The notes under the pieces are model-generated. The model searched no databases, had not been told where the DNA came from, and saw only the letters and a program-made list of their open reading frames with translations. Source: Bacillota bacterium (GTDB taxonomy: Bacteria; Patescibacteriota; Patescibacteriia; Patescibacteriales; UBA12465). Taken from it: a stretch of DNA of 64,000 nucleotides. Of this stretch, positions 176 to 60,730 are shown in pieces. Made by a program: the position numbers and the translations under genes. The stretch lies in contig JBLNBA010000002.1 in assembly GCA_050259635.1 (NCBI GenBank), positions 154,906 to 218,905 on the forward strand. Reading direction: 5' to 3'. Every line of letters starts with the position of its first letter. Positions within the stretch are counted from its first letter, which is position 1.

Positions 176-1204
176 ATGAACGACAATAGAGTATTTGTAG
201 GAATGAAATGCTTATTAATGCAGCTTCTAACTGCTGGTTTTCCCTTAGCTATTATACTTTCATATCTCGGAATCAGCTCTTCGACTCTTAATACCTATAT
301 TAAGAAATTAAGAGCCTCTGGAGAGTGGGAGGGACAGGTCATCTCATTTCTGCGCAGCATTCCGGCTGTCGTAAGAACTTACGAGCAGCTACGGAGAAAC
401 AAAATCTCCCTCGAAGGCATTGACGCTGTTAAGCTGAGAACCTCCATAGAAACTGCCCTACAGTTTCCTAGGATTATTGGAATCCTAGATATCTCTTTCA
501 GGGGCCTCTTGAATTTGACTACCGTTGCCTGTTCCAAGGATGTTCCCAAAGAGTATCATGATTTCCTTAACCAGGTATTCTTGCGAGAAGGGTTATGGAT
601 GAACAGATACAGCCCTCGGGATATCAAGATAAAGCTAATTGCTCATCTTTCTTCGAAAGAAGAAATTAAGCCTGGTGCTACTAATGACACCTGGTTTATT
701 CCAACCGTTGATGATATCATCACTGAACGTATCGCAGACATGCGGGAGCTTGTTGGTCCATACTTTGATGCTAAAGTCTTAGAACACGTTGATTACCTTC
801 TGTCTCAACTGACAACAAGGGAAGCCGAGGTGCTTAAATATTATTTCGGCATCTGTGGCTGTCCTAAAACTTCTCTCGAACAGATAGCCCCGAAGTTCGA
901 TCTTACTGACGAGCGAACACGGCAGATCAAAGAGAAGGCTCTTAGAAGGAGTAGGGCTCGCAAAGATATCCTTTTACACCCCTTGCCCCAGCCGGCCCCG
1001 GCGATAGAATTGCCGCATTCAACTCCGTTAGAATCCTTAGGATTAACTGTCAGAGTAATGAATGCTCTTGCTCAATTGGAAGTTAAGACTGTCGAGGAGC
1101 TTATCGTCCATCGTGATTCACTTCTCGCCTATAGAAATATGGGCATGAAAAGTAAGCAGGAAATTGATGAGGCTCTCAACAAGTTTCTGCATCCACAGAC
1201 ATAG
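176..1204 (+). CDS. predicted transcription regulator: N-terminal HTH-like segment, sigma-70 region-4-like HTH in the middle, RNAP alpha-subunit C-terminal-domain-like (HhH) module at the C-terminus
   Basis: segment LTTREAEVLKYYFG...SLEQIAPKFDLTDERTRQIKEKALRR aligns to the sigma r4 consensus; segment LESLGLTVRVMNALAQLEVKTVEELI...NMGMKSKQEIDEALNKF aligns to alpha-CTD. Confidence 0.5.
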   Translation: MNDNRVFVGMKCLLMQLLTAGFPLAIILSYLGISSSTLNTYIKKLRASGEWEGQVISFLRSIPAVVRTYEQLRRNKISLEGIDAVKLRTSIETALQFPRIIGILDISFRGLLNLTTVACSKDVPKEYHDFLNQVFLREGLWMNRYSPRDIKIKLIAHLSSKEEIKPGATNDTWFIPTVDDIITERIADMRELVGPYFDAKVLEHVDYLLSQLTTREAEVLKYYFGICGCPKTSLEQIAPKFDLTDERTRQIKEKALRRSRARKDILLHPLPQPAPAIELPHSTPLESLGLTVRVMNALAQLEVKTVEELIVHRDSLLAYRNMGMKSKQEIDEALNKFLHPQT

Positions 1205-8869: not shown

Positions 8870-10204
8870 CTAGCGGAGTCCCGTGCTGCCGAAACCGCCG
8901 TCTAAGCGGCTGGTATCATTTTCCACCTTTCCTTCTTCTATCTTGGGAAATTCTACTTTCTGGATTAAGAGCTGAGCTATTTTCTGTCCCGCTTGGATAT
9001 TATATATATCTTCGCTCAGATTCTTGAAGACGACCATGATTTCTCCGCGGTAGCCGGAATCTATGACTCCGCCCATCGTCTTATATCCTTGGGCGGCTAA
9101 GCCGCTCTTATCCCAGATCAAACCGGCATACCCCTCCGGAATCATGAGCTTGACGCCGGTGCGGATGCGATCCGTGCCATAGGCGGGGACGGAGACGTTT
9201 TCGCAGGCATAAAGATCAAGGCCGGCATCAGTGGCATGTGCCCGCGTGGGCAGCTTGGCTTCTGCGTGAACTCTCTCGGCAAGGATTGCTGGTTTCTCAT
9301 TATCCGTGACAGAGGCAGGGAGGGCAGTGGCAGCGGTAACGGGGGTAAGATTCTCTCGCGTGTCTTCCGGGTGGGCGGGGACTCCTTTTTCTCCCCTGTC
9401 TGTTTGCCCGATCTCCGCTTTGGGGGTGTCGATGAACTGTGGCAGGTTACTGCCGATTTTTCCCTTGCCTACGAGGATATCCGCCACCGGTTGCATGCCG
9501 GCCGGCTTTTTCGTACCGCCGATGCTCAGGATGCGGTTGACATAGAGCCAGACAAGGTAGTTTATATCTTCTCGGCTCATAATCTCGCCGTTGCGGGTGC
9601 AGCGGATGAGACGGAAGTCCGGCATCGTCTGTGCTATTTCCAGATATACCTGTTCTGCTTTTTTGAGATGCTGCAGGTTTTCTTCGTGGATGTCTTTGGT
9701 TTTTCCTTTCCAATCCTCGCGTCCGCGGTCCTGAGCCATCTTTTGGGCTATTTCCGCCTCTACATGCAGGATGAGATAGAGATCGGGCTTGGGAATACGG
9801 AAGATCTTGTATTCGATCTCGCTTAACCAGTTGAAGAATAACTTCCTTTCCAAAGCGTTTTCTATTTTCCCCCCCTGGTGGGCGAAGCTGGCGGAAACAT
9901 AACGGTTACAGACCACGATCTTGCCCTGGGAAAGCCATTCGCGGATCTTGAAGCTGGCATCAAAACGATCGGTGGCGTATAAGATCGAGGCTGCATACGG
10001 ATTGACGTCATCTGCGCCTCCGTATTTTCCTGAGAGATATTCTTCCACCATGCCCGCGGATTTCTGATTATATTGCGGAAAGTCTGCCAACTCCACGTCG
10101 TATCCTTCGGCCGCGAGCTTGGATACCAAAAGTTGCAGCTGTGTAGTTTTGCCGCTGCCGTCGGTGCCGTCTATGACAATGAATTTTCCGGGATAGGATG
10201 ACAT
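8870..10204 (-). CDS. tmk-dut: fusion protein: thymidylate kinase (N-terminal) + dUTPase (C-terminal)
   Basis: Tmk P-loop IVIDGTDGSGKTTQ and DRFDAS motif; all five dUTPase motifs at the C-terminus (AGLDLY, KSG, GVIDSGYRGE, KIAQLL, RLDGGFGSTG); low-complexity linker about 100 aa. Confidence 0.8.
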   Translation of the reverse strand: MSSYPGKFIVIDGTDGSGKTTQLQLLVSKLAAEGYDVELADFPQYNQKSAGMVEEYLSGKYGGADDVNPYAASILYATDRFDASFKIREWLSQGKIVVCNRYVSASFAHQGGKIENALERKLFFNWLSEIEYKIFRIPKPDLYLILHVEAEIAQKMAQDRGREDWKGKTKDIHEENLQHLKKAEQVYLEIAQTMPDFRLIRCTRNGEIMSREDINYLVWLYVNRILSIGGTKKPAGMQPVADILVGKGKIGSNLPQFIDTPKAEIGQTDRGEKGVPAHPEDTRENLTPVTAATALPASVTDNEKPAILAERVHAEAKLPTRAHATDAGLDLYACENVSVPAYGTDRIRTGVKLMIPEGYAGLIWDKSGLAAQGYKTMGGVIDSGYRGEIMVVFKNLSEDIYNIQAGQKIAQLLIQKVEFPKIEEGKVENDTSRLDGGFGSTGLR

Positions 10205-10822: not shown

Positions 10823-12121
10823 TTAGCGTTGTTCCTTCAATACGATGTCATGGAGTCCGCGGCGCACATCCCAATCATCCAGGTCTAGATCGCAGTGGAG
10901 CGCCACTTCCGGCAGATTCTGGCGGAGGGCTTCATACATCTTGTGGGCCACTCGTCTGAGACTAGGGTGGACAGTCTTTCCCGAGCGTAGTTCGGTTACA
11001 TAGATGGCGGAAGTGAGAGGGTTGGTGATGTGGCAGAAGACATTGAAGCCCATGGCGATGTAGTATTGCTTGAGTTCGGGGCTTGCTTCGAGTGCATCCA
11101 CCTTGGTTTTCTGGGAAGCGATGAGGTTCTCCGCATCAAGGCGCATCTCTTCTGGCAGCTGTTCTAGGTACCAAGATTGGAAACCGAGTTGCGTGGTGAG
11201 CAGAGGAGTGCGGGCGATAGCACTGCGGTGGCGCTGAATATCCCGATATGAACCGTAATCGAGTAGGAACTCGAAGCGGCAATTTCCGAGGTCGGCCATG
11301 AAATAGGGAAGATTGGTTTTGATCGGGCGCTTATCCAATGCTTCCTGGAAATTCTTCAATTCATTACGGTCGATGTCGGTTGAGAATGAGAATTCCTTGG
11401 GGTCTTTCGGGGCGAAATATGAATATTTTGCCATCATCTCTTCACGGTAGGCTTCTTGTTCCGGATATTGCTGGTGGGAAAAGCTGTTTTCATAACGGGA
11501 GCGCAGTTCGGCAAGAATCTGTTCGGCTAATTCGCGCATCTCCTGGAGAGGATGATGCCTGAGAAGAGAGAGCTTATCCCAGGCTTGGCGCAGATTGGTG
11601 TGCCAGCTGAGCTGAGTGGTGATGCCGGCCGGCAAAAAGCCGCGCATGATGTCGAAGGAGCGGGCGCTGATTGCCTTGTCATACATTTTCTCGTCCTCTT
11701 CGTCTCGGCGGGGGTATTTTTCCTTGAGGAAGGGAGTGATCCTTTCACGCCCTTTGATATAAAAATCCATCCAGGCATCGATAATCGCTTTGGATTCGGC
11801 AGTCGCTAAAGGGTCTATTATCGCTTGGCTGGCCATGTCGATGTAGCGGGTGCTGGTCTCCTGTCCGCTATATAGTGGCCAGTCCTGCACCGCCTTATCG
11901 GCTAGGATGCTCAAGCCTTCGATGAAGATGGTAGTGCTGCCGCAATCCGCAATAGAAGCGTGCCCGTAACCGACGTAGAACGTGGACATGAATTTGCCGG
12001 AGCCGCTCTGCCTTACTTTTTCCACATGCTCTTCGACGCTTTTTGGGCTGCGGGAATATAGCGCCTGCATCATGGCGGTGTCCTCCGGGTTGAACTCATC
12101 GTAGACGAATACTTTTGCCAT
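10823..12121 (-). CDS. thyX: FAD-dependent thymidylate synthase ThyX-like, long form (432 aa)
   Basis: N-terminal GYGHASIADCGSTTIFIEGLS resembles the ThyX core, and ...STRY follows; an RHR motif is present only in the second half (QRHRSAIAR); context with dCMP deaminase, Tmk and Dut. Confidence 0.5.
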   Translation of the reverse strand: MAKVFVYDEFNPEDTAMMQALYSRSPKSVEEHVEKVRQSGSGKFMSTFYVGYGHASIADCGSTTIFIEGLSILADKAVQDWPLYSGQETSTRYIDMASQAIIDPLATAESKAIIDAWMDFYIKGRERITPFLKEKYPRRDEEDEKMYDKAISARSFDIMRGFLPAGITTQLSWHTNLRQAWDKLSLLRHHPLQEMRELAEQILAELRSRYENSFSHQQYPEQEAYREEMMAKYSYFAPKDPKEFSFSTDIDRNELKNFQEALDKRPIKTNLPYFMADLGNCRFEFLLDYGSYRDIQRHRSAIARTPLLTTQLGFQSWYLEQLPEEMRLDAENLIASQKTKVDALEASPELKQYYIAMGFNVFCHITNPLTSAIYVTELRSGKTVHPSLRRVAHKMYEALRQNLPEVALHCDLDLDDWDVRRGLHDIVLKEQR

Positions 12122-25485: not shown

Positions 25486-25824
25486 ATGGAAAAGATCAAT
25501 CTAGAAAACTCGCAAGCGCAGATGAGAAAAGGCTTTTTGGAATATTGCATCCTTCTTATCATTTCCAGGCAAAAGGCTTACGCCTCTGATATCCTGGCAG
25601 AACTCAGAAAGGCAGACTTGCTGGTTGTTGAGGGAACGCTGTATCCCTTGCTTAGCCGTTTGAAAAATTCAGGCATGCTGGATTACCACTGGCAGGAATC
25701 AAAGAGCGGTCCGCCGCGTAAGTACTATGAGCTTACCGCTCTCGGACGGACGATGCTCAAGCAGTTGGACGGGACCTGGGAAACGCTTCAATTATCAATT
25801 AGCGCCTTACGCGAATTACGTTAA
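25486..25824 (+). CDS. PadR-family transcriptional regulator
   Basis: motif CILLIIS...YASDI...GTLYPLLSRLKNSGML, a PadR winged HTH. Confidence 0.75.
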   Translation: MEKINLENSQAQMRKGFLEYCILLIISRQKAYASDILAELRKADLLVVEGTLYPLLSRLKNSGMLDYHWQESKSGPPRKYYELTALGRTMLKQLDGTWETLQLSISALRELR

Positions 25825-25831
25825 TAAAAAT

Positions 25832-27355
25832 ATGGAAAAGACAATCTCAATCAATTTAGGCGGCAATCTCTTCTATGCCGAAGAGGACGCCTACCAACGC
25901 CTAGACTCTTATCTTAAGGAAGTGGAACGCTACTTCAAAGAGCAGGAGGATGACAGCGAGGAGATCCTTAAGGACATAGAGACCAGCTTGGCCGAGCACT
26001 TTACCGCGGCGGGGGCCGGTGACCTTAAGCGGGCTGTAACCCTTTCCGAGGTGGAGGACGCCTTGAAAGACATGGGTACTATCCATGACTTCTCTGGCGG
26101 CAATGAAGCCCGGGTGGAAGCGCCCTCGGATGGTCCGCGCCGCTTTTATCGCGATAGCGAGCATGCGGTAATCGGAGGCGTTTGCTCTGGGCTCGGGCAT
26201 TATTTCGGCGTTGATCCGGTTTGGATCCGCCTGCTCTTCGCACTGTCAATCTTTTTCTGGGGGTTTGGTGTGGTTATCTACCTCTTGATCTGGATAGCCG
26301 CTCCGGAAGCCAAAACGGTTTCGGAAAAACTGGTAATGCAGGGTGCGGCCGTGAATCTGTCTTCCTTGTCCGCTAAAATGAAGGAAGGGATCGATTCGGA
26401 AAAGGTGAGGCAGACAGGAAATGCTATATCCCGGTTTTTCAATCGCTTGTTTGATCTTATCGGCCGCCTTATCAGAGGTATCGGGCCACTTATCAGAATT
26501 TTGATTGCGCTTTTCTTCGGCTTCTTCGCTCTCGCCGGATTCGTTTTGATCAGCTTGATGGGTGTCGTGGCGGTTTGGAGCGGTCGGCAGTATTTCGACC
26601 CCGGCTTGATCGCCGCCATCGGCTGGCCTTATCCTTGGCTGGTTCTCAGCAGCGTCTTAGTCTTGGTCTTACCTTGTTTAGCGGCCGTTTTCGCCGCTAT
26701 CGCCCTCTTGCGCAAAAAGAATTGGGTTTCGGTCGGAGTTTGGATTGGGCTATTCCTTGTCTGGTTTGTGAGTGTTCTGGCAGCCGGGGCTTTATTCAGC
26801 GATTCCTTTGTGAGAGTGAAGCCATATGTAGAAGAGGTCGGACAGGCATCTATCCCGCTCCAGGGCGAGGCCGATACGGTCCGGCTCGAAGCCCCGTATT
26901 ATCTTTCGGTCGTTCCGGGAGAGAAGCTCGCTTTACATGTCGAGGGCCATCCGGCAGATATCTCCCGGGTAAGGGCGGAGATAAAGGACAAGGTGTTAAC
27001 CATTAGCCGCGATGACCAGGAATGGCTGTATGTCAATTACGGCCGTAACGTGAGACTGGTGTTAGAGGCCCCGGTGTCCATGCGGAAGGTGGAAATACAG
27101 GGAGGTGGCTTTTTGGATGCAGGCCAATGGCCAGGACAGCCCTTGCAGGTTATATATAAGGACAGAAGCCTGGACATAAGGACGGTAAACAGCACTTCAT
27201 ATTATATCCAGGAAGGAATCCCTTCCGCTGGCAGCGCCCAGGCGGGCACATGGGGTGTCACTGAAGGCGATGCTGGAAATATCCGGATGCAGATCATGAA
27301 AGAAGGTCCTCAAATGGAGGCAGTACCCGTGATCAATGCGATTAAGGTCAGATAA
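25832..27355 (+). CDS. PspC-domain membrane protein
   Basis: PspC domain IGGVCSGLGHYFGVDPVWIRLLF; follows padR; ORF-track start at 25727 overlaps padR and was rejected. Confidence 0.7.
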   Translation: MEKTISINLGGNLFYAEEDAYQRLDSYLKEVERYFKEQEDDSEEILKDIETSLAEHFTAAGAGDLKRAVTLSEVEDALKDMGTIHDFSGGNEARVEAPSDGPRRFYRDSEHAVIGGVCSGLGHYFGVDPVWIRLLFALSIFFWGFGVVIYLLIWIAAPEAKTVSEKLVMQGAAVNLSSLSAKMKEGIDSEKVRQTGNAISRFFNRLFDLIGRLIRGIGPLIRILIALFFGFFALAGFVLISLMGVVAVWSGRQYFDPGLIAAIGWPYPWLVLSSVLVLVLPCLAAVFAAIALLRKKNWVSVGVWIGLFLVWFVSVLAAGALFSDSFVRVKPYVEEVGQASIPLQGEADTVRLEAPYYLSVVPGEKLALHVEGHPADISRVRAEIKDKVLTISRDDQEWLYVNYGRNVRLVLEAPVSMRKVEIQGGGFLDAGQWPGQPLQVIYKDRSLDIRTVNSTSYYIQEGIPSAGSAQAGTWGVTEGDAGNIRMQIMKEGPQMEAVPVINAIKVR

Positions 27356-37058: not shown

Positions 37059-39713
37059 TTACTTCCTTGTTTTGCTTTCGATCGGGCTGACAGTGATAAG
37101 GTCTTTGCCGCTAATATCGATCTTGACCTGATCGCCCTCCTGGATCTGGTTCTCGATTATCCGCAAGGCGAGCTCGTCGAGGATCAGGTTTTGGATTATT
37201 CTCTTTAAGGGGCGGGCACCGTAGGTGCTGTCATATCCTTTTTCGGCTAATACCTTCTTGACTTTAGGGGCGATGCGCAGGGTGATATTCTTGGCATTGA
37301 GCCTTTTTTCCACCTTATCAAGTTCCAGGGCGACGATCTTTTCCAGGTCGGCGGCCTTGAGGCTCTTGAAGAGGACGATTTCATCGATGCGGTTAAGAAA
37401 CTCCAATTTGAAGTGTTCGCGGAGGATCTTATCCACTTTGTCTTTCATTTGCTTGGAGCGTTCCTCGTCTTTTTTCGGTTCCTCATTCTCTCCGCCGAAA
37501 CCGATGGAAAATTGCTTGATTACCTCGTTGCCCAGGTTGGAGGTCATGATGATCACCGTATTCTTGAAATTGACCGTGCGTCCTTTGGAATCAGTGAGAC
37601 GACCGTCATCGAGGATCTGCAAGAGCATATTGAACATATCCGGATGGGCCTTTTCGATTTCATCGAGCAGGATGACGCTATAGGGATGGCGCCGGACCCG
37701 TTCGGTGAGCTGTCCGCCTTCATCATAGCCGATATATCCGGGAGGGGAACCGATGAGCTTGGCGGCCGAATGCTTTTCCATGTATTCGCTCATGTCGAGG
37801 CGGATAAGAGCATTTTCGTCATCGAAAAGGAAGCGCGCTAAAGCCTTGCCGAGCTCCGTCTTGCCGACGCCGGTAGGACCGATGAAAAGGAATGATCCGA
37901 TCGGGCGCTTTTCTTCATTGATGCTGGCGCGTGAACGGCGGATGGCGCGGGCAACGGCGGCGATCGCTTCATCTTGGCCGATCACTTCGTTACCTAATTC
38001 CTGTTCGGCATTGGCTAATTTTTTCATGTCGTCAGCCAGCATCTTGTTAACCGGGATCCCGGTCCAGCGGGCTACCACTTTGGCGATATCTTCTTCGCCG
38101 ACTTCTTCCTTGAGGATACGTTGACCTTTCTTTTGGATCTTTATTAGGCTGTCTTGCAAGACCTTTATCTTATTTTCTAAATCAGGGATAAGTCCGTACT
38201 TGATTTTTGCCACCTCCGTAAGATCCGCTCCCTGGCGCTGGCTGATTTCGGCGCGCATCTTGAGCTCGTCGATTTCCCGCTTGTGGTCGCGGATGGCCGA
38301 GATGATGTTCTTTTCATTATTCCAATGTAATTCCAGCTGGTTGGCTTTCTCTTTGAGTTTGGCCAGCTCCTGGTTTATACCTCTTAGCTTGGGAGATTTT
38401 TTATCAGACGTAAGCAGGGCCGCCTTATTGATCTCTAATTGTTTGATCCGGCGCTTGAGCTGGTCTAATTCATCCGGCATCGAATCGATTTCCATGCGCA
38501 GGGAAGAAGTGGCCTCATCTATGAGGTCAACGGCTTTATCCGGCAAGAAGCGATCGCTGATATAGCGGTTGGATAATTTGGCGGCGGCGGTCAGGGCGTC
38601 GTCCGTAATGCGGACGCCATGGTGTACTTCGTATTTTTCCTTCAGGCCGCGGAGCATGTTGATAGTATCTTCGACGCTCGGCTCATTGACTATGATAGGT
38701 TGGAAACGGCGTTCTAAGGCAGCGTCTTTTTCGATATATTTCTGGTACTCTTTGGTCGTGGTGGCTCCGATCGTCCGGAGTTCACCTCTAGCCAAGGCAG
38801 GCTTGAGCATGTTGGAGGCATCCATCGATCCTTCCGAGGAGCCAGCTCCGATGAGGGTATGGAGTTCGTCAATAAAGATGATTATGCGTCCATTCTGGCT
38901 TTTAACTTCCTTAAGGACAGCTTTGAGGCGGTCTTCGAATTCTCCTCTAAACTTTGCGCCCGCCACGAGCATACCAAGATCCAGGGTGATGATCTCCTTA
39001 TTCTTTAAGTTCTCGGGAACATCGCCGGCAACAATACGTTGGGCTAATCCTTCGACGATCGCCGTCTTGCCGGTTCCGGCTTCCCCGATTAAAACCGGGT
39101 TGTTCTTAGTGCGGCGAAGCAGCACTTGCATTACGCGCCTCACTTCGGTATCGCGACCCACTACCGGATCAAGCTTCTCTTGCCGGGCAAGCTCCGTGAG
39201 ATTAGTGGTATATTTTTCCAGTACTTTGAATTTTCCTTCGGGAGTGGGATCGGTGATCCGCTCGGTGCCTCGGAGTTCTCCCAGAATAGCGCGTACTTTC
39301 TGGTGTTCAACGCCGAAATTTAAGAGGATGGCTTGGGCCGGCGAAGCGATGCCGATTAATGCTAGCAGGATGTGCTCAGTGGAGATAAATTCATCGCCCA
39401 TGCCGTCTGCTTCCTTTTTTGAGCGTTCCAATATGAGGGCAGTTTCATTCGTTCCTGACACTGCTTGTATCGGTCCGGATTGGATGTCGACTTTGGATTT
39501 TGGCAGTTTCTTGATTTCACCGACCGTGTAATTCTCAAGGATATCCGGGTCGATGGCGAGTTTTTCCAGGACGGGTTTTACCAAGCTTTCCGGCTGTTGG
39601 AGCAGGGCGAGCAGGATATGGACACCTTCGATGTTGGGTTGGCCGAAATTAGCCGCAATCGCTTGGGCGTTTATAATGGCTTCTTGGGATTTTTCCGTAA
39701 ATTTATTAAACAT
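37059..39713 (-). CDS. clpB: chaperone ClpB (two AAA+ domains, long M-domain coiled coil)
   Basis: Clp-N repeats, D1 GEAGTGKT, long coiled coil, D2 [15 protein letters not shown]; 884 aa. Confidence 0.85.
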
Positions 39714-39736: not shown

Positions 39737-39763
39737 TAGTTTAGCACTCTGTCATCTTGACTG
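39737..39763. promoter_or_regulatory. CIRCE-like HrcA operator TTAGCACTC-N9-GACTGCTAA upstream of clpB
   Basis: matches CIRCE consensus TTAGCACTC-N9-GAGTGCTAA at 17 of 18 positions. Confidence 0.65.
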
Positions 39764-39887
39764 CTAAGCAATGTACTAGGTTAATAATACTCCAGGATGA
39801 GGCAAAAGTCAATCCATCGCCGTTTATATCAGTGTTCTCAAGCCTTGGTCAGGAGTCGTATTTAATGGTATAATTAAACTAAATTAT

Positions 39888-40259
39888 ATGATCAGAGCAA
39901 ATATCTTATCATCCGGCCTCGAGTTCTTCGCCCGCTTTGCTTGGGGCTTGGTCTATTTCCCCTTATGGTGGTATGGCGCCGGCTTCATACGGCACGCGGG
40001 GCGCGTCTGGCGCTTCCTCAAGGATGAGGAAAGAGCCCTGGGTTTTTCCGTCTGGGCAAGAAACTGGCTGGTGCCGATGTATGGCCAATCGGATTTTGTC
40101 GGGCGCCTGATCAGCTTTGTGATGAGGACGGTTCAAATTATTGCCCGAGGGGCCTTACTTTTCATTTGGGCGCTCCTCGGCCTTCTACTGGCTATTCTTT
40201 GGCTTGCGTTGCCGCCGGTAATTATCCTAGCTTGCGCTTATCAATTAATCGGGGAGTAA
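39888..40259 (+). CDS. small membrane protein co-transcribed with the Clp-like ATPase
   Basis: 3 TM segments; extended -10 TGGTATAAT upstream; 4-nt gap to the next gene. Confidence 0.45.
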   Translation: MIRANILSSGLEFFARFAWGLVYFPLWWYGAGFIRHAGRVWRFLKDEERALGFSVWARNWLVPMYGQSDFVGRLISFVMRTVQIIARGALLFIWALLGLLLAILWLALPPVIILACAYQLIGE

Positions 40260-40263
40260 ACCT

Positions 40264-42924
40264 ATGGAACAAAGGGAACTTCAATTCGAGACCGTTGGCG
40301 GACGTTTTGGCACTTGGCATCTGGGGCGCTTCCTCTATTGGGAGCAACCGCTAAGCCGCTCCAAAGTGACTTCCCGGCGCTTGCGCGAGAAAGCGGACCG
40401 CCTCGTGGATGGCGCCGCTTTTCTGGTATTGGCTGCCGGCTGGTTGTCCCTTATCGCTTGGGTTTATCTCAATTTTGGGTCTATCGCCTCGGATCCTTCT
40501 TCCTTGTTAACCTTCTTTGAAAATCGTCACCCGCTGCTTCTGACTTTCTTCTTTTCTCTCTGGTTCGATCTTTTCCTTTTCTATCGTAAAAGCGAAGCCT
40601 CCTTCCAAAGACAAAAGATTAATTACCGCATTCTCAAAGAGGAAAATAGCAAAGGCAAACAGGATCTCGAGGTTTCCGCTGCTTCCGGGGCGGCTTTGAG
40701 GCGGACGCTCGAAGATTCCTTTTTGATCGCCGCTAAGCTTAAGCAAACGGAAGTCTCGGTCATGCATTTTTTCCGGGCGCTGCTCCTTGATCCGAAAGTG
40801 CAGGAGATGTTCATCCGTTTAGGGATAGATGCCCGGGCTTTGGCTGGCAAAGTGGAGAAGCACATGAAAGGGAAGCAATCTTCCGACCGGCACCCGGCAA
40901 TATCTGCCGCTTTGCAGCAATGTCTCATCTCCGCCTATGCGGATGCCTTCTATCGCCGGCAGGCCTCGATCGAGCCGCTTAATGCCGTAATGTTCTGCTA
41001 TCATGCGGATAAGCTCCTGGCCGAAATTCTTTATGACCTCGAAGCCGATGCGGATAAAATCGCCAATGCTTGTGAATGGTTGCAGATCAATCGTGAATTG
41101 GCCGAGCGCTTACATTCTTTCAGCCGCTCCGCCGCCCTAAAGCCAAAGGGCAGCATGGATCGGGCATATACGGCGGTTGCTTCTCCGACCCTCGATCATT
41201 TTTCCCATGATCTGACCCTGGCTGCAAAATATGGAAGGCTTGAACTTTGCGTGGGGCGCCAGGTGGAGACGGATTCGATCTTTGAGATTATGGAGAGCGG
41301 CCAATGCGGCGTGCTCCTGGTGGGACATAGCGGCAGCGGTAAAACCTCAGTCATCAACGGCATTGCCCAGCTGATGGTTGAGGAGCGAGTCCCTAAATTC
41401 TTGCAGGATAAGCGTTTAGTCGAAATTGATGTTTCACGCTTAGTATCCGGCGCTACGGCTGCGGAGGCGGAATCTCGCCTTCTATCTAGCATCTCGGAAG
41501 CTTCCCGGGCCGGCAATATTGTTTTACATATCGCTAACGTCGAGAACTTGGTGGGAATAAGCGCCGGCAGCGAACAGAGCTTGGATTTATCCGAAGTCTT
41601 GGCTGAAGCTTTAACCCGCCGAGCCGTATATTGCTTGGCGACCATTTCTTCGGCGAATTATGCGGCGGTAATCGAGAAGAGCGCTTTGGGCGAAGCGATG
41701 ACCACCGTGGGAATAAAGGAACCGGCAGATAACCAAGCGATCCAAATGGTCGAGAGCAAAGTATCTTCCCTCGAGGGTGGCTACGGAGTCTTCATTACCT
41801 ATGGAGCTGTGGAGGCGAGTGTGAAATTATCCCAGCGTTTCATCCATGATAAGGCACTGCCTGAGAAAGCGGTCACACTATTGCGCGATGCTGTGATCCG
41901 GGTTGCCAAGCTGAGGAAACATGATCCTCGGCATTCCATCTGCCTGCGTGAACACGTCGCCGGCGCTTTGAGCGAAAAGACAGGAATTCCCCTGCAGAAG
42001 CTTACTGAAGATGAGGGCAAGAAACTTCTGTCTTTGGAAGAAAATATCCACCAGCGCATGGTGGGGCAGGAAGAAGCAGTGGCGGCGGTTTGCGCCAGCT
42101 TGCGCCGTGCCCGTGCGGAAATGAAAGATGCGAAACGGCCTATCGCCAGTTTCCTCTTCTTGGGACCGACTGGCGTGGGCAAGACGGAACTGGCAAAGAC
42201 GGTATCGGAAGTATATTTCGGTCGGGAGGATTATATGATCCGCTTGGACATGAGCGAATACCAAGACGCTGGAAGCACCAGGAAGATGATCGGCGATGTC
42301 GACGGAACGTTAGGTTTTTTGACTGAAGCGGTTAGAAAGAAGCCTTTCTCTCTCATCCTTCTGGATGAAATCGAAAAGGCCCATCCGGATATCTTGAATC
42401 TCTTCTTGCAAATGCTGGATGACGGGCGCCTTACGGACGGCCAAGGAAGGACGATCAGTTTTACGGAATCTATCATTATTGCCACCTCTAACATTGGCGC
42501 CTTGTATATCCAGGAGCAGATCAAAACCGGTACCGATATCAAGCAGATCCGGCAAGAGCTTATCGATAACCAGCTGAACAAGCACATGCGTCCGGAACTC
42601 ATCAACCGCTTTGACGGAATTATTGTTTTCAAGCCTCTTACGGAAGAAAATCTTTACCAGATTGCAACTTTGATGCTAAAAGGCATAAAGAAGCGCTTGG
42701 CCGAAAAAGGCGTTGGCCTCCAAGCGGATAGGATGGGCGCGCAGAAATTGGCTAAGGCAGGATATGATCCGAAGTTCGGCGCTCGCCCCTTGCGTCGTTT
42801 GCTGCAGGAAAAAGTTGAAGACAAGATCGCTAATAAGATCTTAGCCGGTGAACTGAAGCGACGCGATACGGTGGTTATCGACGCGCAAGCGGAGATTGCC
42901 GTAGTAAAAGGGAAGGAGTTGTAG
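40264..42924 (+). CDS. membrane-anchored ClpA/B/C-family AAA+ ATPase paralog (N-terminal TM segments, Clp-N repeats, two AAA modules, D1 Walker B degenerate)
   Basis: 2 N-terminal TM; D1 GHSGSGKT but HIANVEN instead of hhhhDE; D2 canonical ([26 protein letters not shown]). Confidence 0.6.
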   Translation: MEQRELQFETVGGRFGTWHLGRFLYWEQPLSRSKVTSRRLREKADRLVDGAAFLVLAAGWLSLIAWVYLNFGSIASDPSSLLTFFENRHPLLLTFFFSLWFDLFLFYRKSEASFQRQKINYRILKEENSKGKQDLEVSAASGAALRRTLEDSFLIAAKLKQTEVSVMHFFRALLLDPKVQEMFIRLGIDARALAGKVEKHMKGKQSSDRHPAISAALQQCLISAYADAFYRRQASIEPLNAVMFCYHADKLLAEILYDLEADADKIANACEWLQINRELAERLHSFSRSAALKPKGSMDRAYTAVASPTLDHFSHDLTLAAKYGRLELCVGRQVETDSIFEIMESGQCGVLLVGHSGSGKTSVINGIAQLMVEERVPKFLQDKRLVEIDVSRLVSGATAAEAESRLLSSISEASRAGNIVLHIANVENLVGISAGSEQSLDLSEVLAEALTRRAVYCLATISSANYAAVIEKSALGEAMTTVGIKEPADNQAIQMVESKVSSLEGGYGVFITYGAVEASVKLSQRFIHDKALPEKAVTLLRDAVIRVAKLRKHDPRHSICLREHVAGALSEKTGIPLQKLTEDEGKKLLSLEENIHQRMVGQEEAVAAVCASLRRARAEMKDAKRPIASFLFLGPTGVGKTELAKTVSEVYFGREDYMIRLDMSEYQDAGSTRKMIGDVDGTLGFLTEAVRKKPFSLILLDEIEKAHPDILNLFLQMLDDGRLTDGQGRTISFTESIIIATSNIGALYIQEQIKTGTDIKQIRQELIDNQLNKHMRPELINRFDGIIVFKPLTEENLYQIATLMLKGIKKRLAEKGVGLQADRMGAQKLAKAGYDPKFGARPLRRLLQEKVEDKIANKILAGELKRRDTVVIDAQAEIAVVKGKEL

Positions 42925-42927
42925 GAT

Positions 42928-42960
42928 AAAAAAATCGGCCCCTTTTTATAAGGCCGATAT
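42928..42960 (-). terminator. terminator for the minus-strand 101-aa gene (ATCGGCC-loop-GGCCGAT; T-run on minus strand)
   Basis: 7-bp stem; T8 run on minus strand. Confidence 0.55.
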
Positions 42961-42964
42961 ATCA

Positions 42965-43270
42965 TTACGATCGGGAACGCGCAACCTTCCGGTTGAACAT
43001 TGCAGTTTTGAAAATTTTTTGTACCCTTTGGCAACGCTCTATCTTGCTGTTGATGTGCGATAGATTGGCTTCGATGCCTAGGAGTGAGCAACCTTCTTTG
43101 ATAAGAGTGTCTCTTATCCGGTCTCTTTCGTTTCCCAGTTCCTTGTCCCTGACATGCAGAAGATGAGTTATTTCTCCCAAGTCCGAAGGGGATAATTTCC
43201 GAATATCATCACTGATATCGTCTTCTCTGTTTAAATAGTAATCAATACGTTTTGCTGCTTTGTTTCTCAT
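42965..43270 (-). CDS. hypothetical 101-aa protein
   Basis: ORF followed by its own terminator; divergent from the wecA-like gene. Confidence 0.4.
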   Translation of the reverse strand: MRNKAAKRIDYYLNREDDISDDIRKLSPSDLGEITHLLHVRDKELGNERDRIRDTLIKEGCSLLGIEANLSHINSKIERCQRVQKIFKTAMFNRKVARSRS

Positions 43271-43316: not shown

Positions 43317-44888
43317 TTGTCAATTACGTCTATGTTACCTTATATTACTACCTTCATTGCCATTTCTATAATTTCCTTCCTTGTTGGCAGGGGTGTGATT
43401 AGCGTAGCTGAGCGTTTTCATATTGTAGATAGTCCGGATGGAGTTAGAAAGCTGCAATCCAAACCGATTCCTCTTCTCGGAGGGACGGCGATCTTTATTT
43501 CCTTCTTCACCGGCCTGGCAGTTTTCTTGCCGACACTCCTTTCTGGGGACCTGGACATATCTCATTGGATCGGTTTCTTCGCGGGGGCATCCGTCCTGAT
43601 GCTCGGCGGGTTCTTAGATGACAAATATGATCTCAACCCACGCATCCAGATTATTTTTCCCATCATAGCTTCCATTGCTCCCATTATCGGCGGGGTTGGT
43701 ATTGAGCGCTTATCCAATCCTTTCGGCGGTATTTTTGCCGTTCCGGCCTTACTAAGCGCGGCGCTAATCATGGTCTGGCTCTTGGGGATGATGTACACGA
43801 CAAAATTATTGGACGGCGTGGACGGGTTGGTGAGCGGCCTGGGGGTGATCGGTGCTTTGGTTATATTTTTATTCACCTCCACTACCAGATATTTCCAGCC
43901 GGACATTGCCCTAGCAGCATGGATTTTCTCTGCCGCTTGCCTGGGCTTTTTGGTTCTGAATTTTAATCCCGCCAAGATCTATTTAGGGGAAGGGGGCTCG
44001 CTTTTGATCGGTTATGTGCTCGGAGTCTTGGCGATTATTTCCGGCGGGAAGATCGCTATCGCCTTGCTCGTGATGGGCCTGCCTGTCCTTGATGTCGCCT
44101 GGACGATCGTCCGTCGCCTTTTGCGGGGTAGAAATCCCTTCCGCTTCGCCGATCGCTCTCACTTGCATCATCGATTGCTGGATTTAGGGTTATCACCGCG
44201 GCAGACAGTAGTCATATTTTATGCCTTTGCGGCCGCCTTCGGAGCTAGCGGCCTTTTCCTGCAGAGTCGGGGCAAGCTGGTGGCTCTTTCTTTGCTGCTT
44301 GCCATCATGCTCGCCTTGGTGATTTTCTTTTCCCAATATGAGAGGCGCAAGCGCCCCCGCCTCCTTTTCCATGTCTGTTGCGCCCCATGCGCTTCTTATT
44401 CCACCCTTAAGAAGCTTTTACCCCGCTATCGCGTGACTTGGTATTTTCTTAATTCCAACCTGTCTTCTTTCTTGGAATACGAAGCGAGACTGAAAACGGC
44501 AGAGAAGGCCGCGAGGCTTTTGGGGGTCGAACTGATAGCGGTTCCATACGATCATGAAGCGTGGAGCGAAATAGTGAAAGGGCACGAAGATGACCCGGAA
44601 AGAGGTGACCGCTGTCGTATCTGTTATCGCGACCGCCTATCTAATGCTTATAAGTTTGCACAGGACGGCGGCTATGAATTCTTTTCCACGAGCTTGCTGG
44701 TGAGCCCATATAAGGATGACAAGGCTATCCGGGAAATCTGCCGTTCACTGGAGAAAGAAGGGGGGCCGAAATTCCATGACGAGGATTTCCAAGCCGATGA
44801 CGGCTTCCACCGTTCGATCGCTTGGGCGAAAGAAAAGGGGCTGTATTTGCAGAAGTATTGCGGCTGTGAATTTAGTCTAAGAAAATAA
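43317..44888 (+). CDS. fusion: WecA/MraY-family polyprenyl-phosphate N-acetylhexosamine-1-phosphate transferase (N-terminal) + QueH(DUF208)-like Cys-rich domain (C-terminal)
   Basis: GT4 motifs DDKYD, KLLDGVDGLVSG, ADRSHLHHRL; C-terminal LLFHVCCAPCASY ... CRICY ... YCGCEFS resembles epoxyqueuosine reductase QueH; start may be at 43332. Confidence 0.55.
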   Translation: MSITSMLPYITTFIAISIISFLVGRGVISVAERFHIVDSPDGVRKLQSKPIPLLGGTAIFISFFTGLAVFLPTLLSGDLDISHWIGFFAGASVLMLGGFLDDKYDLNPRIQIIFPIIASIAPIIGGVGIERLSNPFGGIFAVPALLSAALIMVWLLGMMYTTKLLDGVDGLVSGLGVIGALVIFLFTSTTRYFQPDIALAAWIFSAACLGFLVLNFNPAKIYLGEGGSLLIGYVLGVLAIISGGKIAIALLVMGLPVLDVAWTIVRRLLRGRNPFRFADRSHLHHRLLDLGLSPRQTVVIFYAFAAAFGASGLFLQSRGKLVALSLLLAIMLALVIFFSQYERRKRPRLLFHVCCAPCASYSTLKKLLPRYRVTWYFLNSNLSSFLEYEARLKTAEKAARLLGVELIAVPYDHEAWSEIVKGHEDDPERGDRCRICYRDRLSNAYKFAQDGGYEFFSTSLLVSPYKDDKAIREICRSLEKEGGPKFHDEDFQADDGFHRSIAWAKEKGLYLQKYCGCEFSLRK

Positions 44889-59782: not shown

Positions 59783-60730
59783 ATGGAAACAATCTATGTG
59801 GTAATCATTGCCAGCTTGCTGGTAGCCTCCTATGTGGCAAGTGGTATAGTGATGGTGCATGAGAATTTTCATATCGTTACCGAACTTTTCGGTAAGAAAT
59901 GGAAAGAACTAGGACCGGGGATAAAGTGGATTCCGCCGTTAATCGTCAGGAAGGCACATATAGTATTTATGGGAACATTCCCTTATGAGCTTAAATTAGG
60001 AAGCGATGGTCCGGGTGGCGATGTCGTCGAGTTCGCAGATGAGTCCTCCATTGTAGCGGTTATTATCCATTTTAAGATAATAAAACCAATGAAGGCGGTG
60101 TATGTAGCCGCTTCACCCGACGAGCTTATGCTAATGGTCATCGATTTATTTGATTCGGTAATTCGCGGGTTCCTAAGAGGATTTACCGTCCAAGATGCAG
60201 ATAAATACAAGAACAAGTTTTCGCTGGAAGTCATTGCTCAAGGAGTTAAGTTGGCAGAAGGCGAAGAACTGGTTCCTTTGGATGAAACTGCCTTCGGTAA
60301 AAAGCTTGCTGAATGGGGTATTAAGCCTGAATTGATATCAATCAAGGATATTGGTTTGCCTGAACGGATCATGGAGCAAATGCGACGGACTATGCAGGTT
60401 GCCAAGGATCTGGAAATCGCAACCTCGGAATTGGACGTTGCGAATAAGGTTGCCCTGAAAGCCGAGATTGTTGCTAAAAGCAAAAGAGAAGTAACCGTGA
60501 TCGAAGCTAAAGGTGAAAAGGAAGCTATGCAAGAACTCGCCGAAGGAGAAACCGCAAGATTAAAAAAATTAATGGAGAACGGCTTAAGTGCAAACGACGC
60601 CGCTAACCATATAATTGAATTGGAAAAAACTGAGGCTTTGAAGAAAGCTGGAAGTGTAACATGGGTCGGTGGCAACACTGATCTCGCATCTATCGGAGCC
60701 GCAATCGGCGCCGGATTGAAAAGTAAATAA
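59783..60730 (+). CDS. SPFH/band-7 (stomatin/prohibitin-like) protein
   Basis: N-terminal TM, SPFH core, C-terminal coiled coil. Confidence 0.65.
   Translation: METIYVVIIASLLVASYVASGIVMVHENFHIVTELFGKKWKELGPGIKWIPPLIVRKAHIVFMGTFPYELKLGSDGPGGDVVEFADESSIVAVIIHFKIIKPMKAVYVAASPDELMLMVIDLFDSVIRGFLRGFTVQDADKYKNKFSLEVIAQGVKLAEGEELVPLDETAFGKKLAEWGIKPELISIKDIGLPERIMEQMRRTMQVAKDLEIATSELDVANKVALKAEIVAKSKREVTVIEAKGEKEAMQELAEGETARLKKLMENGLSANDAANHIIELEKTEALKKAGSVTWVGGNTDLASIGAAIGAGLKSK

Follow-up and report, generated by a model that had tools for sequence, protein, structure and literature searches.

A predicted membrane-anchored Hsp100 paralog and its small membrane partner beside clpB in Patescibacteria

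Textbook Hsp100/Clp proteins are soluble and thread their substrates, and their hallmarks are tyrosine pore loops and a coupling to either ClpP or Hsp70. A 64,000-nucleotide stretch of contig JBLNBA010000002.1 (assembly GCA_050259635.1), hereafter the window, encodes a relative of these proteins that departs from this description on several counts, raising the question of what kind of machine it is and whether it shares its control with the clpB gene beside it. The gene for this paralog lies behind a small membrane open reading frame (ORF), and the pair is divergent from clpB, which is preceded by a CIRCE element (controlling inverted repeat of chaperone expression). An earlier reading of the same letters, the original prediction, described a 123-aa ORF followed by an 886-aa Clp/Hsp100 paralog, both of which are confirmed (coordinates of all features are given in Table 1), and took the paralog for a membrane-tethered unfoldase that binds ATP in its first ATPase domain (D1) but may not hydrolyse it. 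Here, the tether and a D1 that looks able to bind nucleotide are supported, while the unfoldase activity has become doubtful, the canonical aromatic pore-loop residue being present in neither ring in any of 120 family members.

From its N-terminus, the paralog is laid out as a short beta element (residues 8-25), a transmembrane hairpin, a helical N-domain (137-292), D1 (306-555) and a second ATPase domain, D2 (556-886). The AlphaFold2 (AF2) model, with a mean predicted local distance difference test score (pLDDT) of 81.6, contains helices at 32-69 and 90-116, the N-domain at 137-292, a disordered linker at 292-306 and two AAA+ modules. Foldseek matched this model to ClpC and ClpB cores (TM-score about 0.8, E down to 8.8e-54), and the best sequence matches in the PDB are ClpC (E 2.8e-126). 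Three Pfam families score above their cutoffs, namely AAA_2 (172.9 bits), ClpB_D2-small (85.1) and AAA_lid_9 (45.3), and the plural "Clp-N repeats" of the original prediction come down to a single Clp_N repeat, recognized when residues 130-305 are scanned alone and weak even then (24.0 bits against a cutoff of 20.7, E 4.5e-5). On these profile and fold matches, the paralog is a member of the Hsp100/Clp class I AAA+ superfamily. It nevertheless falls below every NCBIfam cutoff, reaching 518.5 of the 1232.1 bits required by the ClpB model TIGR03346, on which its match falls in two separate stretches, and 441.2 of the 993.15 bits required by the ClpA model TIGR02639.

The first departure from the Hsp100 pattern is the anchor. 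A 19-residue Kyte-Doolittle scan of the single sequence exceeds 1.5 only at residues 46-72, but the mean over 60 family members resolves two peaks, 1.88 at residues 49-67 and 1.86 at 88-106, in agreement with the two helices of the AF2 model and with the two N-terminal transmembrane helices proposed at the outset. Net charge is +3.4 before the helices, 0.0 between them and +6.2 after them. Because both flanks of the hairpin are positive, the anchor is predicted to adopt an N-in/C-in topology, with an outer loop of about 16 residues and the ATPase domains in the cytoplasm.

To ask which parts of the machine are conserved, we drew on a family of more than 120 full-length relatives (883-921 aa, 56-77% identity), the named members of which are Patescibacteria or Falkowbacteria. 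ATPase motifs in D1 and D2 were placed by HMMER alignments to solved ClpC and ClpB chains and by BLASTP against the window ClpB, and family counts refer to 119 full-length relatives or to 120 members. D1 retains its Walker A motif, with the lysine kept in 116 of the 119 relatives, and its Walker B site, IVLHIAN, aligns opposite II[LI]FIDE of ClpB and ClpC, so that Ala-Asn takes the place of the acidic pair, as had been noticed originally. The first acidic position varies across the family (D in 73, A in 26, S in 10 and N in 7), while the catalytic glutamate has become asparagine in 115/119. D1 is also more degenerate than the original prediction recognized: both arginine fingers are lost, with arginine at neither position in any of the 119 relatives or in four distant relatives described below, and the pore-loop tyrosine of ClpB is gone, no member of the family carrying an aromatic residue there (0/120). 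Since the Walker A lysine is kept while the catalytic glutamate is replaced and the arginine fingers are missing, D1 looks able to bind nucleotide but not to hydrolyse it.

Could such losses simply mark a decaying paralog or an inactive pseudo-enzyme? Several D1 catalytic residues have indeed disappeared, but the ATPase motifs of D2 are invariant in all 119 relatives and the reading frame is intact in hundreds of relatives. Mean pairwise identity within the family rises from 0.43 in the anchor region and 0.52 in the N-domain to 0.67 in D1 and 0.78 in D2. D1 is thus under purifying selection and therefore functional and conserved rather than decaying, and we give decay practically no credence. 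A closer comparison is with NSF-D2, p97-D1 and PEX1/PEX6-D1, where one ring likewise keeps Walker A, has lost its hydrolysis residues and pore aromatic, and leaves the other ring to act as the motor. These proteins belong to another AAA+ clade, however, and differ in that the degenerate ring of the paralog is the N-terminal one and its motor ring also lacks an aromatic loop.

That D2 is "fully canonical", as first described, holds for its ATPase site and fails for its pore loop. Walker A, Walker B (DE), sensor-1, the arginine finger (R782) and sensor-2 (GARPLRR) are invariant in 119/119. Where ClpB and ClpC have GSPPGY[IV]GYDEGGQ, the D2 pore loop is five residues shorter, GTLG stands in place of GYVG, and the gripping tyrosine has become threonine. 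The motif G[YFW][ILVM]G occurs nowhere in any of the 120 members, and loop positions 677-684 hold an aromatic residue in none of them. With the aromatic pore loops missing from both rings, substrate grip must be unconventional, and classical threading by the paralog is uncertain on this evidence.

The interfaces through which Hsp100 proteins are coupled to partners are missing as well. At the site of the ClpP-docking loop the paralog has an 11-residue deletion relative to ClpC, and the check suggested at the outset confirms that it has no [LIV]G[FL] loop; a single member of the 120 carries an incidental IGL. The D1-D2 junction measures 60 aa in the paralog and 57-61 aa across the 120 members, compared with 180 aa in the window ClpB, the M-domain of about 120 residues being absent. 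For want of the M-domain and the ClpP loop, the paralog would work without DnaK coupling and without ClpP, and no ClpP was found among the window ORFs of at least 180 aa scanned with Pfam.

These absences bear on the annotation carried by many relatives, which are labelled "ATP-dependent Clp protease ATP-binding subunit (ClpC)", "AAA family ATPase" or "hypothetical". That the paralog is an ordinary ClpC/ClpA-type ATP-binding subunit of Clp protease agrees with the name given to its relatives and with ClpC as its best PDB sequence match. The two also share the order of N-domain, D1, D2 and D2-small, a conserved D2 ATPase site and the best fold matches, and the paralog is collinear with the ClpA model over residues 144-873. 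In contrast to ClpC and ClpA, however, it has a transmembrane hairpin, a deleted ClpP-docking loop and no ClpC M-domain; its D1 lacks the Walker B glutamate, the arginine fingers and the pore tyrosine; its D2 loop is short and without GYVG; a small membrane protein is its obligatory partner; and its scores lie far below the NCBIfam cutoffs. We regard this reading as extremely unlikely, and the label "Clp protease ATP-binding subunit" is contradicted by the sequence. The alternative suggested originally, that the protein is "probably ClpB-like", fails as well. ClpB and Hsp104 also have no ClpP loop, ClpB is the paralog's top NCBIfam model, and the gene sits beside a genuine clpB; the paralog, though, lacks the M-domain that defines ClpB and with it the DnaK coupling site, its D1 appears inactive from its motifs, its pore loops have no tyrosines, and it is anchored. 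Contrary to its database name, then, the paralog is probably neither a ClpB nor a ClpP partner.

The second component of the system is the small membrane protein, which matches no Pfam or NCBIfam family. In its AF2 model (pLDDT 88.8), the loop NWLVPMYGQSD connects two long helices that span residues 6-51 and 70-121. The sequence runs through a YFPxWWY motif (residues 23-29), a tip loop NxxVPMYGQxD (59-69) and a GRxISFxxRxxQ stretch into a hydrophobic C-terminal segment of 35 residues, and 27 of its positions show at least 90% conservation in a set of 65 distinct relatives, including YFPxWWY, PMYGQxD and the GRxISFxxRxxQ stretch. The three transmembrane helices assigned to it originally are not supported, given that only residues ~85-121 are strongly hydrophobic (Kyte-Doolittle up to 2.7), that the N-terminal aromatic segment peaks at 1.28 and that the model has two long helices. 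The net charge of residues 34-87 is +5.6. When 1.84 billion representatives were searched with a profile of the family, 511 clusters at 50% identity were recovered, nearly all of them stand-alone proteins of 105-160 aa. No "Rosetta stone" fusion of the small protein to a Clp protein occurs among the best 150 of these 511 clusters; one 414-aa protein carries the small-protein domain.

The link between the two proteins, proposed originally as a possibility, proves strong. Only 4 nt separate the stop codon of the small ORF from the ATG of the paralog, and because the GGGGAG ribosome-binding site of the paralog lies inside the end of the small ORF, the arrangement suggests that the two are translationally coupled. 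Upstream, no Shine-Dalgarno sequence lies between the -10 element and the ATG of the small ORF (39869-39890), and translation of this gene may start on an mRNA with almost no leader, in contrast to the strong GGGGAG site of the paralog. On four long contigs of relatives (L081-L084), a small homolog of 121-123 aa lies 3-7 nt upstream of the paralog in 4/4, the divergent neighbor being clpB in two and a large surface protein in the other two. A metagenome scan seeded with the small protein yielded 80 loci, and wherever at least 600 nt of downstream sequence allowed the pairing to be counted, the paralog followed directly after the small gene (74/74, tblastn-checked).

How far does the module extend? 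A profile built from the anchor, N-domain and D1 of five diverse members recovered the same Falkowbacteria-type clade and no wider taxa. Scanning contigs with a paralog profile gave 80 further loci, nearly all of them ordinary ClpC or ClpB of unrelated phyla, with four useful exceptions (L001, L034, L052 and L077). Three of these are distant versions of the module, in Parcubacteria DG_74_3 (L034), a Saccharimonadales metagenome-assembled genome (MAG; L052) and a Saccharibacteria MAG (L077), with paralogs only 21-23% identical to the window protein across the N-terminal 560 residues. Each has a membrane ORF of 128-146 aa directly upstream, within 2 nt or overlapping, and each of the three paralogs has an N-terminal transmembrane hairpin, no M-domain, a deleted ClpP loop, no D1 arginine fingers or D1 pore tyrosine, an intact D2 ATPase site and a D2 pore loop that is 4-5 residues shorter and lacks GYVG. 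In L052 and L077, both Saccharimonadia, this loop has no aromatic residue at all. Against the small-protein profile, the small ORFs of the same two loci give weak matches, with E-values of 3e-6 and 7e-5 when the database is nominally set at 10^6 sequences. D1 varies more: its Walker B reads DE in L034 and L052 and DN in L077 and L001, while L034 has GRK in place of GKT in Walker A and L052 keeps both Walker motifs. This pattern suggests that loss of the arginine fingers came first in the degeneration of D1 and that distant relatives degenerated by different routes. An ordinary ClpC with GYVG and IGF, found in another member of the Patescibacteria (L058), provides a contrast inside the same group. 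Gene order thus shows the pair to be obligatory across a large Patescibacteria family and to recur in more distant Patescibacteria lineages.

The surroundings of the module can be compared in the same way. In the window and in close relatives its flanking genes encode a fusion of a GT4 (MraY/WecA-type) domain to QueH, a YkuD L,D-transpeptidase and a beta-propeller protein. In L034, mraZ, mraW and a penicillin-binding protein lie downstream, and in L052 LytR_cpsA_psr lies upstream. Judged by these domain assignments, the flanks differ by lineage yet are envelope-related each time.

We tentatively rank first, at a little under an even chance, the reading in which the paralog is a Patescibacteria-specific hexameric membrane remodeller or extractase of the cytoplasmic face, with D1 as an ATP-bound scaffold, D2 as the sole motor and the small subunit as a helper. 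In this mechanism, the hexamer would be held at the cytoplasmic membrane face, with its N-domain/D1 face toward the bilayer because the anchor is N-terminal. By analogy with NSF-D2 and PEX1/6-D1, the ATP-bound D1 would be a static scaffold for assembly, leaving D2 as the only motor, and the ring would act on membrane-embedded or envelope-associated clients, remodelling them or extracting them toward the cytoplasm. The small protein could serve as a fixed membrane partner, either adaptor or regulator; from the membrane, its helical stalk, which is positively charged, and the invariant VPMYGQxD tip would extend toward the ring. In essence, the arrangement would work like that of FtsH and Msp1/ATAD1, which are N-terminally anchored AAA+ proteins that pull membrane proteins from the bilayer (FtsH with two transmembrane helices per subunit), and with which the paralog shares N-terminal anchor helices and a ring entry face expected to point toward the membrane. 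The likeness is one of operation and not of descent: FtsH and Msp1/ATAD1 belong to another AAA+ clade, have a single ring and aromatic pore loops and show no homology to the paralog beyond the AAA+ core, and FtsH has a protease domain in addition.

Several points stand against this reading. Most directly, the only active ring has no aromatic pore-loop residue, which speaks against hand-over-hand threading and hence against extraction. In the window's clade position 685 is Tyr or Phe in 118/120 members, but this aromatic aligns to the helix N-cap or to the second Tyr of GYVGY rather than to the gripping Tyr. One to three transmembrane helices are possible for the small protein. The small ORF of L034 has no match to the small-protein hidden Markov model. 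Finally, an envelope neighborhood is weak evidence, small Patescibacteria genomes being rich in such genes.

The missing aromatic grip is the point at which a second reading takes hold. Torsins are Hsp100-D2-like, membrane-associated proteins without aromatic pore loops that depend on membrane cofactors, and by comparison with torsin and its partners LAP1/LULL1 the paralog could be a non-threading ATP switch, in which D2 cycling changes the conformation or assembly of the membrane partner or of another envelope complex and nothing is threaded. The two systems have in common their relation to Hsp100 D2, membrane association, the absence of an aromatic pore loop and a membrane partner protein. 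Such a switch would account for the loss of the canonical aromatic residue from both rings in 120/120 members, for the complete lack of aromatics in the D2 loop of the two Saccharimonadia relatives and for the obligatory pairing. Torsin, however, has no arginine finger of its own, forms a single ring and resides in the lumen of the endoplasmic reticulum, while the paralog has an intact arginine finger and sensor-2 and a ring predicted to be cytoplasmic. In 119/119 relatives D2 keeps R782, sensor-1 and sensor-2, and its active site is therefore complete without a cofactor. The protein has also retained the N-domain and both rings of the full Hsp100 architecture, and Y/F685 is conserved in the window's clade. 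We consider the switch the main rival, albeit a somewhat unlikely one.

A third possibility reverses the direction of movement. As in Bcs1 or PTEX-HSP101, the ring could sit on a pore formed by 12 anchor helices and the small protein and push or hand a client into or across the membrane. A transmembrane hairpin and a small membrane partner in fixed gene order would suit an export or insertion motor of this kind, as would envelope-gene neighbors and non-aromatic pore loops, which Bcs1 also has. The geometry is less accommodating, because the anchor precedes the N-domain and D1, which turns D2, the usual exit face, away from the membrane, and the extracytoplasmic loop is only about 16 residues long, with no sign of a channel. 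Export or insertion is in our estimation quite improbable.

Whichever of these holds for the paralog, its fold and ATPase chemistry are those of Hsp100, and its combined features match no described member of that group. A membrane anchor, a static D1, the lack of an aromatic grip, the lack of a ClpP or DnaK interface and an obligatory small subunit are Hsp100 rules broken together. In the searchable literature, with subscription-only papers outside reach, we found no description of a transmembrane-anchored Hsp100 or of this Patescibacteria family; a TM7x transcriptome paper names just a "predicted clp protease". Beyond the extractase, a bolder proposal can be framed, that the pair forms an undescribed membrane machine of two components, spread across the Patescibacteria and functionally a new class of Hsp100, with a static and an active tier and no aromatic pore loops, run through a small subunit whose VPMYGQxD tip engages the ring, and serving envelope biogenesis or maintenance rather than general protein quality control. 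We put this forward as an unlikely proposal. Patescibacteria are ultra-small, minimal and often episymbiotic bacteria, and should the paralog prove to be a membrane-protein extractase or a remodeller of the envelope, it would supply a missing piece in the membrane upkeep of such reduced genomes, while providing a natural AAA+ test case for a pore without aromatic paddles. Recognizable versions of the module are present in three or more other lineages of Patescibacteria, among them Saccharibacteria, of which cultured, genetically tractable strains have been reported.

Is the pair controlled together with clpB? The clpB gene (product at 1197 bits on TIGR03346, with Clp_N, AAA, AAA_lid_9, AAA_2 and ClpB_D2-small matched) is separated from the small ORF by a spacer of 174 bp between the divergent start codons, one less than originally given. 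Within this spacer, the CIRCE element foreseen in the original prediction is real, though its distance from clpB is 27 nt and not 24. It differs by one mismatch from the consensus TTAGCACTC-N9-GAGTGCTAA. Nothing else in the 64-kb window matches at three or fewer mismatches, and 100 shuffles that preserved dinucleotide content produced no match at all. Both divergent units have a promoter-like site, in each case a consensus match from which we infer promoter function. On the clpB side the order of promoter-like site (sigma70-like), CIRCE and gene would be the classic layout, and the pair has a separate promoter-like site of its own, with CIRCE lying about 80 nt upstream of its -35. As in the CIRCE/HrcA regulon, a perfect-type inverted repeat with a 9-nt spacer precedes a chaperone gene, lying here between its start codon and the promoter-like match; the regulon is classically aimed at groESL and dnaK, and the target here is clpB. 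The control of clpB thus appears to be HrcA-type heat-shock control of an ordinary kind, and no hrcA was found among the window ORFs of at least 180 aa scanned with Pfam.

If the pair belonged to the HrcA heat-shock regulon with clpB, it could form a membrane branch of the heat-shock disaggregase system through the shared CIRCE. Proximity favors this: of 60 metagenome loci whose upstream sequence is long enough, 36 have clpB directly adjacent and divergent, and in 50 it lies within 4.5 kb upstream. The distribution of CIRCE does not follow the pair, however. It is found in the spacer of 36/36 related loci with clpB as adjacent divergent neighbor, whereas in loci without adjacent clpB the 400 nt upstream of the pair contain it in 0/24; in loci with intervening genes, it stays beside clpB, further upstream; and it is absent at the L081 and L084 loci. 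In the window it lies downstream of the clpB promoter-like site. On its position and on the 0/24 result we reject shared CIRCE control of both divergent units, and consider membership of the pair in the HrcA regulon very unlikely. Because of the contrast between 36/36 and 0/24, together with the loci carrying inserted genes, CIRCE is assigned to clpB; the pair stands as a unit of its own, frequently though not invariably next to clpB, and their adjacency represents conserved synteny and not shared regulation.

The clpB product has a feature of its own. At about residues 745-760 it carries an 11-residue insertion with IGF, exactly at the site of the ClpP-docking LGF loop of ClpC1, where ClpB of T. 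thermophilus has a gap. The IGF is kept in 11/11 full-length orthologs from related loci. With a full-length M-domain plus IGF, the protein could be a naturally occurring hybrid of ClpB and ClpC that can dock ClpP.

Table 1. Positions in the window of the module, the clpB regulatory region and the sites discussed in the text
Feature	Coordinates	Strand	Remarks
clpB	37059-39713	-	884 aa; N-domain, D1, long M-domain, D2; full-length ClpB-type Hsp100
CIRCE inverted repeat	39741-39767		TTAGCACTC-TGTCATCTT-GACTGCTAA; 9-nt spacer; HrcA operator type; upstream of clpB ATG
clpB promoter-like site	39784-39812	-	TTGACT-17-TATTAT; 10/12 consensus matches; CIRCE just downstream
Promoter-like site of the pair	39846-39874	+	TGGTCA-17-TG-TATAAT; consensus match; -10 ends 13 nt before small-ORF ATG
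Small membrane ORF	39888-40259	+	123 aa
Ribosome-binding site of paralog	40251-40256	+	GGGGAG; inside small-ORF end; 7 nt before ATG at 40264
Clp/Hsp100 paralog, predicted membrane-anchored	40264-42924	+	886 aa
Transmembrane (TM) hairpin, predicted	40408-40584	+	TM1 ~49-70 (DGAAFLVLAAGWLSLIAWVYLN); TM2 ~88-107 (RHPLLLTFFFSLWFDLFLFY)
D1 Walker A	41323-41346	+	GHSGSGKT; retained
D1 pore-loop site	41446-41475	+	SGATAAEAES; no aromatic
D1 Walker B site	41518-41538	+	IVLHIAN; AN replaces DE
D1 arginine-finger site	41683-41706	+	ALGEAMTT; aligned to ALERRFQP of ClpB
D2 Walker A	42163-42186	+	GPTGVGKT
D2 pore-loop site	42292-42318	+	GDVDGTLGF
D2 Walker B	42352-42381	+	Canonical
ClpP-docking-loop site	42490-42540	+	NIGALYIQEQIKTGTDI; deletion relative to ClpC
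GC-rich hairpin	42934-42958		Between paralog stop and convergent 101-aa ORF; terminator-like; T-run on minus strand, A-run before it on plus strand

Downstream of the module, a 101-aa ORF without a Pfam match lies convergent to the paralog at 42965-43270 (minus strand); L081 and L082 have ORFs of 106 aa and 60 aa in the same place and on the same strand. It is followed by the fusion mentioned above, a 523-aa ORF at 43317-44888 (plus strand) that joins a Glycos_transf_4 (MraY/WecA-type) membrane domain to epoxyqueuosine reductase QueH, and the same fusion also follows the module in L081-L084. Two genes elsewhere in the window, neither of them next to the module, encode membrane-stress or scaffold types of protein: a 542-aa PspC-domain membrane protein (25727-27355, plus strand) and an SPFH/Band-7 protein (59783-60730, plus strand).

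Other domain combinations were found at a distance. In a 342-aa ORF at 176-1204 (plus strand), Sigma70 region 4 is unusually paired with the C-terminal domain of RNA polymerase alpha, and a 444-aa ORF at 8870-10204 (minus strand) fuses an N-terminal thymidylate kinase to a C-terminal dUTPase. Adjacent to the latter, a 432-aa ORF at 10823-12121 has a Thy1/ThyX domain on its first 208 residues only. The Bacillota label of the source MAG looks wrong, as its close relatives, its ClpB orthologs (78-82% identity) and its gene order are those of Patescibacteria/Falkowbacteria, for example CP066698.1.

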